The translations under genes and the position numbers were made by a program. The notes below the pieces were generated by a model that was given only the letters and a program-made list of their open reading frames with translations, ran no database searches and was not told the DNA's origin. This document shows, one piece after another, positions 13,166 to 34,033 of a DNA stretch of 64,000 nt (positions are counted from its first letter, which is position 1; every line of letters starts with the position of its first letter). Source of the DNA: Escherichia coli (lineage in GTDB: Bacteria; Pseudomonadota; Gammaproteobacteria; Enterobacterales; Enterobacteriaceae); the NCBI RefSeq assembly GCF_003334255.1, contig NZ_QOWU01000014.1; one strand, 5' to 3'.

Positions 13166-16343
<3,178 letters not shown>

Positions 16344-19450: not shown

Positions 19451-20092
19451 ATGAAACCATATCAGCGCCAGTTTATTGAATTTGCGCTTAGCAAGCAGGT
19501 GTTAAAGTTTGGCGAGTTTACGCTGAAATCCGGGCGCAAAAGCCCCTATTTCTTCAACGCCGGGCTGTTTAATACCGGGCGCGACCTGGCACTGTTAGGC
19601 CGTTTTTACGCTGAAGCATTGGTGGATTCTGGCATTGAGTTCGATCTGCTGTTTGGCCCTGCTTACAAAGGGATCCCGATTGCGACCACTACCGCCGTGG
19701 CGCTGGCGGAGCATCATGACCTTGACCTGCCGTACTGCTTTAACCGCAAAGAGGCAAAAGACCACGGTGAAGGCGGCAATCTGGTTGGTAGCGCGTTACA
19801 AGGACGCGTAATGCTGGTAGATGATGTGATCACCGCCGGAACGGCGATTCGCGAATCGATGGAGATTATTCAGGCTAATGGCGCGACGCTTGCTGGCGTA
19901 TTGATTTCGCTTGATCGTCAGGAACGGGGGCGCGGCGAGATTTCGGCGATTCAGGAAGTTGAGCGTGATTACAACTGCAAAGTGATCTCTATCATCACCC
20001 TGAAAGATCTGATTGCCTATCTGGAAGAGAAGCCGGAAATGGCGGAACATCTGGCGGCGGTTAAGGCCTATCGCGAAGAGTTTGGCGTTTAA
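19451..20092 (+). CDS. pyrE: orotate phosphoribosyltransferase
   Basis: ORF 19436..20092; start trimmed to [13 protein letters not shown] (213 aa). Confidence 0.95.
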
Positions 20093-21287: not shown

Positions 21288-22488
21288 CATAACGGGTCAC
21301 GATCTCGTCGAGTAATAATTGGCCAAGGAGCTCTTTGCGCTCAAGCGGTAAGACTTTATCTCCGTCCTGCCAGAAAAGGTGTAATGCGTTGTTGTCGCTG
21401 TTAAATCCTTGAGTTGGCTGGGAAACATCGTTCGCGCAGATCAGATCAAGGTTTTTACGGATACGTTTTTGCCGGGCGTATTCTTCCACATTATTTGTTT
21501 CGGCGGCAAATCCAACGACGTAGGGTCGATGGTCTTTTAGTGCGGCAACGCCTGCGACGATATCGGGGTTTTTAACCATTTTTATTGTTAATTCATCACC
21601 CTGCGTGGCCTGCTTTTTGATTTTTTCTGGGGCCACGGTAGCTGCGCGATAATCCGCCACGGCGGCGCAACCGATAAAAATATTTTGCTGCTGTACAGAA
21701 GCATTCACGGCGGCTTCCATTTCCAGCGCGGTCATCACATCAACACGTTTAACAAACGGTGGCGTCGGTAGTGAAACCGGACCTGATACCAGCGTGACGT
21801 TCGCGCCACGACGGGCAGCGGCGGCGGCGATAGCAAAACCCATCTTGCCGGAGCTGTGATTAGAGATATAACGCACCGGATCGAGCGGTTCACGCGTCGG
21901 GCCGGCGGTAATCATAATGTTCAGATGTTTCAGGTCGTTGACGGGCGAAAAATGCGCTACCGCCATATCCACAATGGTTAATGGATCGAGCATTCGCCCT
22001 GGGCCGATATCACCACAAGCCTGACTGCCACTGTCTGGCCCCCAGATCAGCAAACCACGGGAAGCAAGCACCTCTAAATTATGCTGCGTGGCAGCGGCAC
22101 GGTACATCTGCTGGTTCATGGCGGGGAGCACGGCTACAGGCGCAGGTGTAGCCAGACAAATCGTCGATACCAGGTCATTCGCCATTCCGGCAGCAACACG
22201 GGCAATCAAATCTGCCGTGGCAGGGGCGAGAATCACTAAATCAGCCCATTTACCCAGCTCAATATGGCCCATAGCGGCTTCGGCTGCCGGGTCCAGCAGA
22301 CTGTCGGAAACGGGATAACCAGAAACCGCCTGCAAGCTAAGTGGGGTGATAAAGGCTTTTGCCGCTTCGGTCATGGCTACGCGGACGTCGGCCCCGCGAT
22401 CGCGCAAACGACGCACCAGTTCAGGGGTTTTATAGGCAGCAATACCGCCGCTAACGCCGAGAACGATTTTTTTACCGGCCAGGCTCAT
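21268..22488 (-). CDS. coaBC: phosphopantothenoylcysteine decarboxylase / phosphopantothenate-cysteine ligase
   Basis: ORF 21268..22560; start trimmed to [20 protein letters not shown] (406 aa). Confidence 0.95.
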
Positions 22489-24914: not shown

Positions 24915-26679
<1,765 letters not shown>

Positions 26680-27030
26680 AGTAAATAGCTGACTTATGGA
26701 TGTGCTGGGGATTCTATGTATTTAGCTGTGGCTTTACCATTACTTTTCCCGTTTTTGACTTAAATAGCAATTTACCCGCCAATTCTTGCTGAACATCTAT
26801 ACTTTTTTTGTATTTTTATGCGATTCATTGATTTCTGCTGTACGTGCAGGAAGGAATCGCAGAGCAACAGTGAAAGAATATGGTTGCTAATGATTTTATT
26901 TGATTGATTTCTTTATTGAAAATCAACAATGTGCTTAAAAATCATTCGGGTCGGATTGCCGCGAAAGAAGTGATACACTAGCGCGTCAATATCAGTGCGG
27001 TATCAGTATTCAGGTAGCTGTTGAGCCTGG

Positions 27031-27042
27031 GGCGGTAGCGTG
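27031..27042 (+). promoter_or_regulatory. ops element (GGCGGTAGCGTG) within JUMPStart sequence, RfaH recruitment site in the waaQ operon leader
   Basis: Exact 12-mer ggcggtagcgtg read about 50 nt upstream of waaQ start. Confidence 0.8.
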
Positions 27043-27091
27043 CTTTTTCTGCTTCACCTTAATCGGATAATCTCAACAAAAAGAGTTACTT

Positions 27092-28150
27092 GTGGATAAG
27101 CCATTTCGAAGAATTTTGCTCATTAAGATGCGTTTTCATGGGGATATGTTATTAACTACTCCCGTCATTAGTTCGCTGAAAAAAAATTACCCTGACGCAA
27201 AAATCGATGTGCTGCTTTATCAGGACACCATCCCGATCCTGTCTGAAAATCCAGAGATTAACGCGCTCTACGGCATAAAAAATAAAAAAGCAAAAGCCTC
27301 AGAAAAAATTGCCAACTTTTTTCATCTCATCAAGGTATTACGTGCCAATAAGTATGACCTTATCGTCAATCTTACCGATCAATGGATGGTTGCTATACTG
27401 GTTCGCTTATTAAATGCTCGTGTGAAAATTTCCCAGGATTATCATCATCGGCAGTCTGCTTTTTGGCGTAAAAGTTTCACCCATTTGGTGCCGTTGCAGG
27501 GTGGAAATGTGGTGGAAAGTAACTTATCCGTGCTGACACCATTGGGACTTGATTCGTTGGTGAAGCAGACAACCATGAGTTACCCGCCTGCAAGCTGGAA
27601 ACGTATGCGTCGCGAACTTGATCACGCTGGTGTTGGACAAAATTATGTGGTTATCCAACCTACGGCGCGGCAAATCTTCAAATGCTGGGACAACGCCAAG
27701 TTTTCCGCTGTGATTGATGCCTTACATGCTAGTGGTTATGAAGTCGTTCTGACGTCCGGCCCGGATAAAGACGATCTGGCCTGCGTCAATGAAATTGCGC
27801 AGGGATGCCAGACGCCACCAGTAACGGCGCTGGCTGGAAAGGTGACCTTCCCGGAACTTGGTGCGTTAATCGATCATGCGCAGCTGTTTATTGGCGTTGA
27901 TTCCGCACCGGCGCATATTGCCGCTGCAGTTAATACGCCGCTGATATCGCTGTTTGGTGCGACAGACCATATTTTCTGGCGTCCCTGGTCAAATAACATG
28001 ATTCAATTCTGGGCGGGAGATTACCGGGAAATGCCAACGCGCGATCAGCGTGACCGAAATGAGATGTATCTTTCGGTTATTCCGGCGGCAGATGTCATTG
28101 CTGCTGTCGATAAATTACTGCCCTTCTCCACGACAGGTACGTCGTTATGA
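27092..28150 (+). CDS. waaQ: LPS heptosyltransferase III
   Basis: 352 aa ORF from GTG; first gene after ops element; annotated start may be the internal TTG or ATG 8-12 codons in. Confidence 0.88.
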   Translation: MDKPFRRILLIKMRFHGDMLLTTPVISSLKKNYPDAKIDVLLYQDTIPILSENPEINALYGIKNKKAKASEKIANFFHLIKVLRANKYDLIVNLTDQWMVAILVRLLNARVKISQDYHHRQSAFWRKSFTHLVPLQGGNVVESNLSVLTPLGLDSLVKQTTMSYPPASWKRMRRELDHAGVGQNYVVIQPTARQIFKCWDNAKFSAVIDALHASGYEVVLTSGPDKDDLACVNEIAQGCQTPPVTALAGKVTFPELGALIDHAQLFIGVDSAPAHIAAAVNTPLISLFGATDHIFWRPWSNNMIQFWAGDYREMPTRDQRDRNEMYLSVIPAADVIAAVDKLLPFSTTGTSL

Positions 28151-29271
28151 TCGTTGCTTTTTGTTTATATAAATATTTTCCCTTTGGCGGTTTGCAGCGC
28201 GATTTTATGCGTATTGCTCAGACAGTCGCCGCCCGAGGTCATCATGTTCGGGTTTATACCCAGTCGTGGGAAGGCGAATGCCCTGATGTATTTGAACTGA
28301 TCAAAGTGCCGGTTAAATCGCATACCAATCACGGGCGCAATGCGGAGTATTTTACCTGGGTGCAAAAACATTTACGCGAACATCCCGTCGATAAAGTCGT
28401 TGGATTCAACAAAATGCCGGGGCTGGACGTTTATTATGCCGCTGATGTTTGTTATGCCGAGAAAGTAGCGCAGGAGAAAGGCTTTTTCTATCGCCTGACG
28501 TCACGTTATCGCCATTATGCCGCCTTTGAGCGGGCAACCTTCGAACAGGGCAAGCCGACACAGCTGCTGATGCTGACAGATAAGCAAATCGCCGATTTCC
28601 AGAAACATTATCAGACTGAAGCGGAGCGTTTTCATATTCTGCCACCGGGGATTTATCCTGATCGTAAATATAGCCAGCAGCCAGCCAATAGCCGTGAAAT
28701 CTTCCGTAAGAAGAATGGAATAACCGAACAACAATATTTATTGTTGCAGGTCGGTTCAGACTTCACGCGTAAAGGTGTCGATCGTTCCATTGAAGCACTT
28801 GCTTCTTTACCGGATTCGCTGCGCCACAACACATTGCTATATGTTGTTGGGCAGGATAAACCGCGAAAATTTGAGGCGCTGGCAGAAAAACGCGGCGTGC
28901 GCAGTAATGTTCACTTCTTCTCGGGGCGCAATGATGTCTCGGAATTAATGGCGGCGGCGGATTTATTACTGCATCCTGCCTACCAGGAAGCGGCGGGAAT
29001 TGTGCTGCTGGAAGCGATTACTGCAGGATTACCGGTACTAACAACAGCCGTTTGTGGCTATGCGCCTTATATTGTCGAGGCCAATTGCGGCGAGGCTATT
29101 GCTGAGCCATTCCGCCAGGAAACATTGAATGAGATTTTACGCAAAGCGTTAACGCAATCTTCATTGCGCCAGGCCTGGGCGGAAAATGCGCGACATTATG
29201 CTGATACACAAGATTTATACAGTCTGCCAGAGAAAGCGGCGGATATCATAACGGGTGGTCTGGATGGTTGA
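28147..29271 (+). CDS. waaG: LPS core glucosyltransferase I (GT4)
   Basis: 374 aa ORF; 4 nt overlap with waaQ stop. Confidence 0.95.
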
Positions 29272-30061
29272 ACTTAAAGAGCCGTTTGCCACGTTATGGC
29301 GCGGTAAAGATCCTTTTGAGGAAGTTAAAACCTTGCAGGGTGAGATATTTCGTGAACTGGAAACTCGCCGTACTCTGCGCTTTGAAATGGCGGGAAAAAG
29401 CTATTTTCTCAAATGGCATCGCGGCACGACCCTGAAAGAGATAATCAAAAATTTACTCTCATTGCGGATGCCAGTATTAGGCGCAGACCGCGAATGGAAT
29501 GCGATTCATCGACTGCGGGATGTCGGCGTTGATACTATGTATGGGGTGGCATTCGGCGAAAAAGGCATGAATCCGCTGACCAGAACCTCGTTTATTATTA
29601 CCGAAGATCTGACACCAACCATAAGTCTGGAAGATTACTGTGCTGACTGGGCGACCAACCCACCAGATGTTCGCGTAAAGCGTATGCTTATTAAGCGTGT
29701 CGCGACGATGGTGCGCGATATGCATGCTGCGGGCATTAATCACCGTGACTGTTATATCTGTCATTTCCTGCTGCACTTGCCTTTTTCCGGTAAGGAAGAG
29801 GAGTTAAAAATTTCGGTAATTGACCTGCACCGGGCGCAGCTTCGCACGCGCGTTCCACGTCGTTGGCGCGATAAAGATCTTATTGGACTTTATTTTTCTT
29901 CGATGAATATTGGCCTGACTCAGCGGGATATCTGGCGGTTTATGAAGGTGTATTTTGCCGCTCCGCTTAAAGACATTCTCAAGCAGGAACAAGGACTGCT
30001 GTTGCAAGCAGAAGCAAAAGCCACAAAAATCAGGGAAAGAACGATTCGAAAATCGTTGTAA
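29264..30061 (+). CDS. waaP: LPS core heptose(I) kinase
   Basis: ORF 29255..30061; start trimmed to [14 protein letters not shown] (265 aa); overlaps waaG 3' end. Confidence 0.93.
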
Positions 30062-30103
30062 CCCGTAACTTATTTTTGCCAAAATTTTGGATACAGAATA
30101 AAT

Positions 30104-31111
30104 ATGTCTCAACTCAATGATAGTGACATCATCCTTTTTGAGTATAATTTTCATTATCAAAATATAAGATCTAAAAATACTCTTGATATAGCATTTGGTA
30201 TTGACAGAAATTTTCTTTTTGGATGTGGTGTAGCCATCGCATCTATTCTATTAAACAATAGAGAAATCTCTTGTGAATTTCATGTTTTCACAGATTATAT
30301 CAGTGATAAAGACAAATTATATTTTTCTGATTTAGCAAAACAATATAATTCAAGAATTAATATTTATGTTATCAATTGTGATAAGCTGAAGTCATTACCA
30401 AGCACGAAAAACTGGACTTACGCAACATATTTTCGATTTATAATTGCAGATTATTTCTATCATAAACATGAAAAAATACTATATCTTGATGCAGATATTG
30501 CTTGCAAGGGTAGTATTAAAGAACTCTTAGATTATCAATTTTCTACTAATGAAATTGCCGCAGTTGTAGCTGAAAGAGATGTTGAATGGTGGCAAAATCG
30601 AGCCTCGGTATTAACTACACCACAGTTAGCTTCTGGATATTTCAATGCTGGTTTTTTACTGATAAATATTGATGAGTGGAATCTAAATAACATTTCGTCA
30701 AAAGCTATTGAAATGTTGCGTGACCCAGATTGGGTAAGTAAAATCACCCACCTTGATCAAGATGTACTGAATGTATTATTGAATGGTAAAGTGAAGTTTA
30801 TTTCGGAGAAATATAATACCCGATATAGTATTAACTATGAATTAAAAGACAAAGTTGATAATCCAGTCAATGATGACACCGTGTTTATACACTATGTGGG
30901 ACCTACAAAACCCTGGCATGAGTGGGCTGACTATCCGGTGTCACGTAGTTTTTTGATCGCCAAAGCAGCTTCTCCGTGGAGTAAAGAAGATTTACTTAAA
31001 CCTGTAAATAGCAATCAGTATCGGTATTGTGCAAAACATAAATTTAAACAAAAGCATTATATGGCAGGCATTTTTAATTATTTAAAGTATTATAAAGAAA
31101 AATGCTTCTAA
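30104..31111 (+). CDS. waaI: GT8-family LPS outer-core hexosyltransferase (R3-type WaaI-like)
   Basis: 335 aa ORF, low GC; GT8 features (DxD region LYLDADI, C-terminal HYxGxxKPW-like motif); position after waaP. Confidence 0.65.
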   Translation: MSQLNDSDIILFEYNFHYQNIRSKNTLDIAFGIDRNFLFGCGVAIASILLNNREISCEFHVFTDYISDKDKLYFSDLAKQYNSRINIYVINCDKLKSLPSTKNWTYATYFRFIIADYFYHKHEKILYLDADIACKGSIKELLDYQFSTNEIAAVVAERDVEWWQNRASVLTTPQLASGYFNAGFLLINIDEWNLNNISSKAIEMLRDPDWVSKITHLDQDVLNVLLNGKVKFISEKYNTRYSINYELKDKVDNPVNDDTVFIHYVGPTKPWHEWADYPVSRSFLIAKAASPWSKEDLLKPVNSNQYRYCAKHKFKQKHYMAGIFNYLKYYKEKCF

Positions 31112-31136
31112 AGATTTAAGGTTAAAATAATTCATT

Positions 31137-31844
31137 ATGATATATAATAAAACGATAAATGGGTTGAAAGTTTTCATAAAAGATAATGATCCCTTTTATG
31201 AGCAAGTTCTAAATGACTTTTTAACTTGCAGGGTTAAAACATTAAAAGTTTTTCGTTCTATTGATGATACTAAAGTCATTCTTATTGACACTGCTCGTGG
31301 ACCTCTTGTACTTAAAGTTTATGCGCCAAAGCATAAAATGACCGAACGTTTCTTAAAATCTTGCATAAAAAAAGATTATTATGAAAATTTAATTTATCAA
31401 ACCGATCGGGTACGTGGTGAAGGCATCCAATCAATTAATGACTATTTTTTGCTAGCTGAACGTAAAACATTAAATTTCGCTCATTATTATATTATGCTCA
31501 TTGAGTATATTGAAGGTGTCGGGTTAAATGAGTATTTGGAAATTTCTGAAGATCTGAAGGATCAATTATCAGAATCGATAAAAGAGTTGCATCAGCATGG
31601 AATGGTGTCTGGCGATCCTCATAAAGGAAATTTTATAGTATCCGAAAAAGGTTTAAGACTAATTGACCTTTCAGGTAAAAAAACAACCGCTGTTTTAAAA
31701 GCAAAAGATCGCATTGATCTTGAACGGCACTATAATATAAAAAATGAATTGAAAGACTTTGGCTATACATATCTTATATTCAAAAAGAAAATTAAAAAAG
31801 TAATCAGGGATGTAAAAGTCAAACTAGGATTGAAGAGCAAATAA
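31137..31844 (+). CDS. waaY: LPS core heptose(II) kinase
   Basis: 235 aa low-GC ORF, kinase-like; position between two GT8 genes. Confidence 0.75.
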   Translation: MIYNKTINGLKVFIKDNDPFYEQVLNDFLTCRVKTLKVFRSIDDTKVILIDTARGPLVLKVYAPKHKMTERFLKSCIKKDYYENLIYQTDRVRGEGIQSINDYFLLAERKTLNFAHYYIMLIEYIEGVGLNEYLEISEDLKDQLSESIKELHQHGMVSGDPHKGNFIVSEKGLRLIDLSGKKTTAVLKAKDRIDLERHYNIKNELKDFGYTYLIFKKKIKKVIRDVKVKLGLKSK

Positions 31845-31868
31845 TGATTATGATGAAGGGTAATTAAA

Positions 31869-32882
31869 TTGGATTTTAAACATCTTACTCAATTTAAAGA
31901 TATAATTGAACTGGACAAGCGCCCCGTTAAACTTGATGAACGGGAAACGTTTAATGTCTCATGGGGTATTGATGAGAACTACCAGGTTGGGGCTGCGATT
32001 TCAATTGCTTCAATTCTTGAAAATAATAAACAAAACAAATTTACCTTTCACATAATCGCTGATTACTTAGACAAAGAGTATATTGAATTATTATCACAAT
32101 TAGCAACGAAGTATCAAACAGTAATTAAATTATATCATATTGATTCTGAGCCATTGAAGGCGCTACCTCAATCAAATATCTGGCCAGTATCTATTTATTA
32201 TCGTTTGCTTTCATTTGATTATTTTTCTGCGCGATTGGATTCATTATTATATCTTGATGCTGATATCGTCTGTAAGGGTTCATTGAACGAGTTAATAGCA
32301 TTAGAGTTTAAAGATGAATATGGGGCAGTGGTAATTGATGTAGATGCTATGCAAAGTAAAAGCGCTGAGCGTTTGTGTAATGAGGATTTTAACGGTAGCT
32401 ATTTTAACTCTGGTGTAATGTATATTAATTTACGGGAATGGTTAAAACAAAGACTAACGGAAAAATTCTTTGATCTATTATCAGATGAGTCAATTATAAA
32501 AAAATTAAAGTACCCGGATCAAGATATTTTAAACTTAATGTTTCTACATCATGCTAAAATATTACCGAGAAAATATAATTGTATTTATACTATAAAGTCA
32601 GAATTTGAAGAAAAAAATAGTGAATATTACACCCGGTTTATTAATGATGACACTGTCTTCATACATTATACTGGTATAACTAAGCCATGGCATGATTGGG
32701 CGAACTACGCCTCTGCAGATTATTTTCGTAATATTTATAATATATCACCATGGAGAAATATACCTTATAAAAAAGCTGTTAAAAAACATGAGTACAAAGA
32801 AAAATATAAACACTTGCTTTACCAGAAAAAATTTCTCGATGGTGTTTTTACAGCAATTAAATATAATGTTATGAAAGGTTAA
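31869..32882 (+). CDS. waaJ: GT8-family LPS outer-core glycosyltransferase (WaaJ-like)
   Basis: 337 aa ORF, paralogous to 30104..31111 (LYLDADIVCKGS, FIHYTGxTKPWH). Confidence 0.65.
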   Translation: MDFKHLTQFKDIIELDKRPVKLDERETFNVSWGIDENYQVGAAISIASILENNKQNKFTFHIIADYLDKEYIELLSQLATKYQTVIKLYHIDSEPLKALPQSNIWPVSIYYRLLSFDYFSARLDSLLYLDADIVCKGSLNELIALEFKDEYGAVVIDVDAMQSKSAERLCNEDFNGSYFNSGVMYINLREWLKQRLTEKFFDLLSDESIIKKLKYPDQDILNLMFLHHAKILPRKYNCIYTIKSEFEEKNSEYYTRFINDDTVFIHYTGITKPWHDWANYASADYFRNIYNISPWRNIPYKKAVKKHEYKEKYKHLLYQKKFLDGVFTAIKYNVMKG

Positions 32883-32890
32883 TATACGAG

Positions 32891-34033
32891 ATGGTTGATA
32901 AAATAATATTTACGGTTACTCCTATTTTTTCAATTCCTCCTCGCGGAGCGGCTGCTGTTGAAACGTGGATGTATCAGGTTGCTCAGCGTACCAATTTTCC
33001 AAATCGTATTGTTTGTATCAAAAATCCAGGATACTCAAATTACACCTTTGTTAATGATAATTGTAGTATTCATAGGGTTGGATTCAGTCGCATATATAAG
33101 CGGTTATTTCAAAAATGGACAAGACTTGATCCTCTTCCATATTCACAGAGAATATTGAATATTGCACATGATTTTCCTATAACGAAAGAAAGTGTTATTG
33201 TAGTTCATAATAGCATGAAGCTATACACTCAAATTCGTAAGCGAGCTCCTCAGGCAAGAGTGGTTATACATATGCATAATGCATTTGAACCAAAATTGCT
33301 TGAGCAAAATGTTAAAATGATAGTGCCTAGTTTATACTTGAAAAAGTATTACCAATCTTATTTAGCAAATGCAGATATTGAGATTGTACCAAATGGAATT
33401 GATTTAGAAACCTATCAATCTAATTTTCAGCCGATCACTAGAAGCGAACTTAATATCTCCCCTGAAGAGAAAATTATTTTTTATGCTGGGCGTATCGTCC
33501 CTGACAAAGGCATATTGCTGTTGATGCAATCATTCGAAAAATTGGCCGCTGCTCACAAAAATTTAAAATTAGTTGTGATTGGTGATTATACAGAAATGAG
33601 TAAAAGTGACAAAGGTGCATATCAACGCAATGTCAGGGAAATTGCAAAACGTTTGAAGGATCGTTGCATTATGTTAGGAAGCATACCGCCTGAAAAGATG
33701 CATTGTTATTACCCACTGGCAGATTTAGTCGTCATTCCTTCCCAGTTCCAGGAACCATTTTGCATGGTGGCAATTGAAGCTATGGGTGCTGGTAAGCCTG
33801 TTTTAGTGAGTACGCGTGGGGGGATGACGGAATTTGTCAAAGAAAATACTACGGGATTCCATTTAAAAGAACCTATGACTGCAGACTCCATAAGCAGCGA
33901 TATTTTAAAAACGTTAGCGAATCCTGAATTAACAGCAGTTGCAAAGCAAGGTCAGGACTTTGTGTTTGATCACTACAGTTGGGATGGCGTAACTCAAAGA
34001 TTCGAAGAGGTTATTCATAATTGGTTTGAATAA
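32891..34033 (+). CDS. waaD: GT4-family glycosyltransferase, terminal outer-core transferase (R3 WaaD-like)
   Basis: 380 aa low-GC ORF with GT4 C-terminal motifs (EPFCMVAIEAMGAGKPV); last gene before convergent waaL. Confidence 0.55.
   Translation: MVDKIIFTVTPIFSIPPRGAAAVETWMYQVAQRTNFPNRIVCIKNPGYSNYTFVNDNCSIHRVGFSRIYKRLFQKWTRLDPLPYSQRILNIAHDFPITKESVIVVHNSMKLYTQIRKRAPQARVVIHMHNAFEPKLLEQNVKMIVPSLYLKKYYQSYLANADIEIVPNGIDLETYQSNFQPITRSELNISPEEKIIFYAGRIVPDKGILLLMQSFEKLAAAHKNLKLVVIGDYTEMSKSDKGAYQRNVREIAKRLKDRCIMLGSIPPEKMHCYYPLADLVVIPSQFQEPFCMVAIEAMGAGKPVLVSTRGGMTEFVKENTTGFHLKEPMTADSISSDILKTLANPELTAVAKQGQDFVFDHYSWDGVTQRFEEVIHNWFE

Follow-up and report, generated by a model that had tools for sequence, protein, structure and literature searches.

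In the 64-kb stretch of Escherichia coli DNA that we analysed (hereafter the window), the list of open reading frames places waaA on the minus strand, with its 5' side at 26679, and waaQ on the plus strand, starting with a GTG at 27092. The two genes are divergent and leave a gap of 412 bp between them (26680-27091). The GC content of the gap is 38.3%, compared with 49.7% in the window, 54% in waaA and 46.7% in waaQ, and the low GC content extends past the gap for about 400 bp inside waaQ. The sequence of the gap is 100% identical to that found in many E. coli chromosomes, where it is located between the annotated waaA and rfaQ genes. The initial annotation had taken this stretch for the AT-rich, 412-bp intergenic region between the divergent waaA and waaQ genes of E. 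coli, and the reading frame coordinates, the base composition and the chromosomal matches agree with it in each of these respects. It had also spoken of a long leader, a description that can be kept for only part of the gap. Orthology with rirA puts the transcript start at 26986, which leaves about 106 nt for the waaQ leader; the ~306 bp upstream of it are thus promoter and regulatory DNA shared with waaA. The features of the locus are listed in Table 1.

Table 1. Features of the waaA-waaQ intergenic region and its surroundings, in window coordinates.
Feature	Position	Strand	Basis and remarks
waaA (Kdo transferase) coding sequence	25402..26679	-	425-aa open reading frame; annotated as waaA in matching E. 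coli records
waaA-proximal block	26680..26750	-	Conserved across genera; putative waaA core promoter and short leader
Conserved island TTTTTTTGTATTTTTATGCGATTCATTGA	26803..26831		29 bp, inside the diverged middle of the gap
Putative waaQ promoter	26951..26979	+	Conserved TCGGAT at the -35 position, 17-nt spacer, extended -10 TGaTACACT; activity predicted
RirA orthologue, 5' part of the waaQ mRNA leader	26986..27057	+	Alignment to MG1655 rirA (b4760)
Extended imperfect RNA hairpin, terminator-like	26993..27048	+	RNAalifold, 15 waaQ-type leaders
JUMPStart element (Rfam RF01707) with small hairpin CAGG...CCTG	27004..27042	+	cmscan, 55.2 bits
ops 12-mer GGCGGTAGCGTG	27031..27042	+	Exact match; expected RNA polymerase pause position U11 = 27041
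Weak Shine-Dalgarno-like AAGAG	27081..27085	+	6 nt before the GTG
ops-controlled operon	27092..34033	+	Seven co-directional open reading frames, ~6.9 kb
Other copies of GGCGGTAG	7768, 16131, 19696, 21964, 37527, 53320, 57566		

Downstream of the gap, waaQ (27092-28150) is followed in the same direction by waaG, waaP, waaO, waaY, a GT8 transferase gene and a GlcNAc transferase gene, the gene names being taken from a 99% identical annotated E. coli locus. The waaL, waaC, waaF and hldD genes come after this operon in convergent orientation. In E. coli O157:H7 PV15-279 the intergenic region is likewise 100% identical, the surrounding 22.8 kb show 99.07% identity, and the waa genes are found in the same order; the DNA of the window thus comes from another strain than PV15-279. 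The outer-core gene set of the window corresponds gene for gene, at 99%, to the O157:H7 waa locus, which we take to be of the R3 core type, whereas the K-12 operon carries the K-12 core gene set. The GT8 reading frame (31869-32882, TTG start) is intact in the window and encodes 337 aa; the copy in O157:H7 PV15-279 is a frameshifted pseudogene by annotation.

The start of waaQ differs from that annotated in MG1655, in which the gene begins at an ATG equivalent to window position 27128 (NC_000913.3 3808098) and encodes 344 aa. The upstream GTG at 27092 adds 12 residues, including a conserved RILLIK strand, and gives a reading frame of 352 aa. The NCBIfam RfaQ equivalog model aligns with residues 1-351 of this frame, and the broader heptosyltransferase I and III models begin already at residue 7. 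The GTG is also conserved in the 10 other loci checked (nine other genera and a second E. coli strain). From the profile alignment and the conservation across genera, we conclude that the GTG at 27092 is the real start of waaQ, and the ATG at 27128 was rejected on the same grounds. PGAP records already take the GTG as the start. All 12 aligned intergenic sequences share an unchanged AGAG motif 6-7 nt before the GTG.

In the putative waaQ promoter, the extended -10 element is composed of a TG at 26971-72 and the hexamer TACACT at 26974-79, the last base of which lies 7 nt before the counterpart of the K-12 rirA 5' end. The 12 aligned intergenic sequences all retain the motif TGnTACA(C/A)T. A simple promoter scan for the consensus did not flag this promoter because of its poor -35 element, and inspection by eye of the conserved promoter block revealed no convincing sigma-32 or sigma-E match. 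At the other end of the gap, the ~70-nt waaA-proximal block is kept almost base for base in the 12 aligned sequences from 10 genera. On the waaA strand it includes CATAGAAT, with a -10-like TAGAAT at 26716-26711 (minus strand) that is invariant except in Kosakonia (TAAAAT). We found no obvious Shine-Dalgarno sequence before the waaA ATG in this block, and no Rfam family matches positions 26680-26750. The block probably comprises the core promoter of waaA and a short leader. Not one base of the island TTTTTTTGTATTTTTATGCGATTCATTGA differs between the alleles of the window and of K-12, and most of it is retained in Escherichia and Citrobacter; the middle of the gap around it is ~50% diverged. 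The island may serve as a site for a regulator or as an additional promoter.

An ops element is defined by the 8-nt core GGCGGTAG inside the 12-nt GGCGGTAGnnTG, which includes the pause-inducing T11-G12. The initial annotation had placed an exact ops 12-mer about 50 nt before waaQ. Indeed, GGCGGTAGCGTG occurs once in the window, on the waaQ-sense (non-template) strand, with no mismatch in the 8-bp core and with 49 nt between its last base and the GTG. The 5' end shared by rirA and waaQ in K-12 has its counterpart 45 nt upstream of this 12-mer, the start being placed by orthology. In dinucleotide-preserving shuffles, 0.02 exact matches per window are expected. Alignment to the JUMPStart consensus, which had been proposed as a check, gave a match to RF01707 over the full model (1-38 of 38), with a score well above the gathering score of 35 (E = 2e-11 locally and 6.4e-10 for the whole window). 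In an unbiased Rfam scan this was the only match in the window. The element is also placed as expected of a JUMPStart, just 5' of the seven co-directional LPS-core reading frames. By every sequence criterion tested, the region belongs fully to the ops and JUMPStart families, and the claim that a complete JUMPStart/ops element on the waaQ-sense strand marks an RfaH site agrees with both the sequence and the published role of ops (PMC5995543).

Short ops-like strings can arise without function, and one may ask whether the 12-mer arose by chance, or is a decayed element, and plays no part in regulation here. The 8-mer core GGCGGTAG occurs eight times in the window, mostly in genes, compared with 1.5 copies expected from dinucleotide shuffles. 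The seven copies outside the intergenic region have neither T11-G12 nor a JUMPStart context and were rejected as ops sites. Four of them are found within the annotated stretch, and all four lie inside genes: those at 21964 and 37527 are in coaBC and hldD/rfaD, respectively, both in sense orientation, that at 19696 is antisense in pyrE, and the fourth is at 16131. Their rejection is consistent with the published observation that RfaH ignores ops-like sites in genes (PMC9765446). The excess of the 8-mer is probably a codon-usage effect (GGC-GGT-AGC). Unlike these copies, the one at 27031 has the full 12-mer and the JUMPStart context. It is also positionally orthologous to the experimentally studied element of K-12, and it is near-universal in E. 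coli and present in other genera too. This conservation and orthology effectively refute a chance match, to which we assign next to no probability.

We compared the leader with that of K-12, where the waaQ (rfaQ) leader has the same locus, the same gene order and the same position of the RirA 5' end, and where the promoter block differs by two substitutions. In MG1655, rirA (b4760) is annotated at 3808166-3808238 on the minus strand and is 73 nt long. Full-length alignment shows that the corresponding stretch of the window is 72 nt long, with five substitutions and one T fewer in the T-run; the identity by BLAST is 95.4% over positions 9-72. The JUMPStart and ops sequences are identical to those of K-12 from 27000 to 27048. 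The RirA stretch was found in 5425 of the 5426 complete E. coli genomes at an identity of at least 90%. For the properties of RirA we rely on three reviews by the discoverers' group and on the MG1655 annotation. According to the reviews, RirA and the waaQ mRNA have a common 5' end and RirA binds RfaH in an ops-dependent manner (PMC6358824, PMC5736990, PMC8745692), acting by titration of the RfaH protein and not by base-pairing. Since the 5' end is common to both RNAs, we infer that 26986 is the transcription start. The statement that this leader gives rise to the small RNA RirA is thus upheld by the orthologous MG1655 ncRNA b4760 and by the reviews.

It is also evident that the gap is a mosaic when compared with its K-12 counterpart, which is a minority allele with ~80% identity to the gap in the window. 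Next to waaA, the two alleles agree in all of the first 89 bp. In the middle they differ strongly, with the island at 26803-26831 as the exception. The stretch from 26936 to 27048, which holds the promoter, the 5' part of RirA, JUMPStart and ops, is nearly identical, and the final ~40 nt are diverged. The gap allele of the window (at least 99% identity) is found in ~4,410 of the 5,426 complete E. coli genomes, and K-12-like alleles (60-80% over the gap) are found in ~935. The mosaic pattern suggests old recombination breakpoints within the gap, linked to different waa core types. Among the 5,437 gap matches in E. coli genomes, one belongs to a record labelled as plasmid, and a single genome contains the gap twice.

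The same layout can be found outside E. coli. Species-representative genomes were scanned with the pattern GGTAGC-N9-14-GGCGGTAGCGTG, which returned at least 120 loci. By tblastn with WaaQ and WaaA of the window, the element is immediately upstream of a waaQ homologue in at least 18 of the loci listed. Among the matches listed, 14 other loci are of the waaA type, and a divergent waaA is present in 13 of these; at the Pluralibacter locus the upstream DNA is too short. The layout recurs in at least 10 enterobacterial taxa: E. albertii, Citrobacter, Silvania, Pluralibacter, Kluyvera, Kosakonia, Cedecea, Enterobacter sp. Ag1, Shimwellia and Pseudescherichia. The spacing from the waaA ATG to the waaQ GTG ranges from 372 to 411 bp in 10 further loci (412 bp in the window and 405 bp in K-12), and the GC content of the gap is 36-43% in all 12 sequences. 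Among the waaQ-type loci listed, the distance from ops to the GTG is 39-49 nt, in agreement with the 40-67 nt from ops to the start that has been reported for RfaH operons (PMC9765446). Four blocks are conserved across the 12 sequences, namely the ~70 nt next to waaA, the waaQ promoter, the RirA/JUMPStart/ops stretch, and AGAG with the GTG.

Several loci of other kinds were recovered by the same scan. In Pectobacterium (two loci), Citrobacter sp. Cu233 and C. youngae, a JUMPStart/ops element precedes a waaQ-like heptosyltransferase gene with no waaA neighbour, and these loci have neither the T-run nor the upstream arm described below. The Citrobacter sp. Cu233 and C. youngae loci have a near-consensus promoter, TTGTCA-N17-TATAAT. 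Elements nearly identical to the K-12 rfb leader were also found in Arthrobacter sp. GMC3 (a 4,155-bp contig with ~2x coverage) and in an Erysipelotrichia metagenome-assembled genome; in the former, the flanks too are nearly identical to the K-12 rfb leader. The most likely explanation for both is enterobacterial contamination or mis-binning.

The JUMPStart/ops elements of other RfaH operons (rfb/O-antigen, kps, hly and tra) are of the same 39-nt type, with the small hairpin and ops in the 5' leader, and they serve the same function as an RfaH loading and pause site. How this site works is known in some detail. The ops element is a consensus-type pause at which RNA polymerase (RNAP) halts at C9 and U11, and the U11 complex backtracks (PMC5995543). 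The non-template ops DNA exposed there forms a small hairpin to which RfaH binds, and pausing is afterwards suppressed by RfaH; in NET-seq, ops ranks with the strongest pauses (PMC5995543). At the rfa locus of CFT073, the RfaH ChIP signal begins at ops, H-NS and StpA coat the locus, and deletion of rfaH causes a collapse of RNAP occupancy further downstream (PMC9765446). The same study is the published source for RfaH occupancy and RfaH-dependent progression of RNAP at the rfa/waaQ operon in CFT073, and cites work on K-12 (PMC9765446). The coating by H-NS and StpA provides a rationale for the AT-richness of the gap.

On this basis, a course of events can be proposed in which the sequence elements, their positions, orthology and conservation come from the present analysis, and pausing, RfaH loading, RfaH dependence, H-NS binding and RirA activity come from the literature. 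RNAP would initiate at about 26986 from the extended -10 promoter, transcribe the JUMPStart element and pause at ops with U11 at 27041. The paused bubble would expose the non-template ops DNA, where RfaH would bind and then remain on the polymerase. RfaH-modified RNAP would withstand pausing, Rho and the H-NS/StpA roadblocks in this AT-rich locus, and it is thought to aid ribosome loading at the weak AAGAG/GTG start 49 nt downstream. The expected outcome is expression of the whole 6.9-kb operon, from waaQ to the GlcNAc transferase gene. The first ~72 nt of the transcript would constitute RirA, which in K-12 binds RfaH (together with RNAP, and needing ops) and dampens RfaH activity. Pausing, RfaH dependence and RirA production have been documented in E. 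coli strains with an identical ops/JUMPStart sequence, and the present allele presumably behaves like those of K-12 and CFT073. Taken together, we consider it very likely, with a probability of roughly 93%, that the region controls the waaQ operon of E. coli as an already known leader for RfaH-dependent processive antitermination; none of our results contradicts this reading. This region is well studied, and its RfaH loading site was already known.

We further noticed that the waaQ-type leaders have two features that most other JUMPStarts lack, namely an additional upstream arm, AGTGCGnTATC, which can pair with the ops RNA, and a T-run. In the window, the 5' arm (26993-27007) is predicted to pair with the ops RNA and three further nucleotides (27032-27045), enclosing the JUMPStart hairpin, and the T-run at 27044-27048 overlaps and follows the stem. 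Across 15 leaders from ~11 genera, 97.2% of the cells are paired in this hairpin, compared with 31-51% with slid partners. Most one-sided changes leave the pairing intact: among the 27 cells that differ from the commonest pair, 20 keep pairing and 7 are unpaired. Three pairs show compensatory changes, a number to be read with the search pattern in mind, which fixed the 3' arm of the hairpin and so limited covariation. The same hairpin was recovered in 14 of the 15 independent minimum free energy folds, often with an upstream A-tract. The T-run comes directly after ops in 12 of the 15 waaQ-type leaders and is uncommon among the ~70 other JUMPStarts listed. Of those listed from enterobacteria outside the waaQ type, ~30 of ~70 have GGCGGTAGCGTG followed by YCTG, which is complementary to the CAG of the upstream CAGTGC; the Rfam JUMPstart model stops at ops, and YCTG is outside it.

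The conserved hairpin at a T-run raises the possibility that the waaQ leader is also an RfaH-gated intrinsic attenuator. RNAP without RfaH would terminate at the U-run and release RirA, whereas RfaH-modified RNAP would read through. Such a function would be added to RfaH loading and would not exclude it. The pairing statistics with the three compensatory pairs, the recovery of the fold in nearly all leaders with its frequent A-tract, and the scarcity of the T-run outside waaQ-type leaders all speak for an attenuator. So does the intrinsic-terminator score of the K-12 site, which is 6.28 according to Adams et al., where 3 or more is suggestive (PMC7815308). Other results speak against it. Although the hairpin ends at the T-run in 12 of the 15 leaders, the single-sequence fold of RirA (-19.3 kcal/mol, z = -0.66) is no better than that of shuffled sequences, a simple terminator scan called no terminator in the waaQ leader, and the 3' arm was fixed by the search pattern. 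Our literature search yielded no description of a terminator in the rfaQ leader, and the papers that it covered treat ops as a hairpin-independent pause. The discoverers of RirA (Klein et al., 2016, in JBC) are said to describe it in their abstract as a processing product.

The 3' ends mapped by Term-seq in K-12 bear directly on this question. Two ends are recorded, 3808184 (62,669 reads, not Rho-dependent) and 3808183 (116,952 reads) (PMC7815308, supplementary file 3). They map to G10 and U11 of ops, equivalent to window positions 27040 and 27041. The RNAs ending there would be 55-56 nt long, and the ends do not coincide with nt 73, the annotated end of RirA. An intrinsic terminator is expected to give in vivo 3' ends in or after the U-run, but the K-12 ends are upstream of the U-run and inside the stem. 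The K-12 rfb leader provides a control. It lacks a T-run, and its terminator score of 2.83 is below the threshold, but Term-seq places a 3' end at G10 of ops in this leader as well (2113139). Since a leader without a T-run ends at the same nucleotide, the G10/U11 ends reflect the pause and not termination, and we rejected them as evidence of termination. In another growth condition, the rfb leader has a second Term-seq end at 2113181, ~42 nt further upstream and before JUMPStart.

A comparison can also be made with the 5'-UTR-derived sRNAs described by Term-seq in E. coli, which are produced when transcription terminates prematurely or pauses. These are likewise short, abundant RNAs that have the 5' end of the mRNA and end inside the leader, and among the 5'-UTR 3' ends tabulated from Term-seq is the K-12 site. 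Unlike in those sRNAs, the 3' ends in the waaQ leader are at the known elemental and backtracked pause positions G10 and U11 and not at a terminator U-tract, and RirA is reported to titrate the RfaH protein rather than to base-pair. Altogether, we regard an attenuator as improbable. We are equally doubtful of what would follow from it, that RfaH loading at ops chooses between read-through and release of RirA and that RirA is an attenuation product and not a processing product.

The T-run and the upstream arm might instead be conserved for reasons other than termination, an explanation that we find somewhat easier to accept than attenuation and still rather unlikely. The U-rich tract could be a ribosome (S1) landing site or translation enhancer for the weak AAGAG/GTG, or could influence how RNAP leaves the ops pause. 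As for the 5' arm, it might represent the CAGTGC motif of JUMPStart in a shifted position, with an effect at the level of DNA or of the initial transcript: CAGTGC adjoins the small hairpin in ordinary JUMPStarts, whereas CAGTGCG is located ~10 nt further upstream in waaQ leaders. It would fit such roles that the T-run of Kosakonia and Cedecea sulfonylureivorans is ~5-9 nt further downstream, off the stem, that the start codon is GTG with a Shine-Dalgarno-like motif that is weak but invariant, and that reviews stress RfaH-mediated ribosome recruitment for RfaH operons. However, the changes in the 5' arm that preserve its pairing with ops would be left unexplained. A functional hairpin with its U-run, which is weakly suggested by these data, is the one point here that could add to the field.

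As the control region of the waaQ operon, the locus has its main value as a positive control and as a base-resolution annotation of the present allele, covering the promoter, the start, RirA, JUMPStart, the ops pause site and the true GTG start. The element governs expression of the LPS core operon and through it outer-membrane integrity, resistance to serum and phages, and virulence. The hairpin and U-run are specific to waaQ leaders and, if functional, would join RfaH loading, RirA biogenesis and LPS feedback; if attenuation did take place, RirA would be a built-in feedback reporter of RfaH availability.
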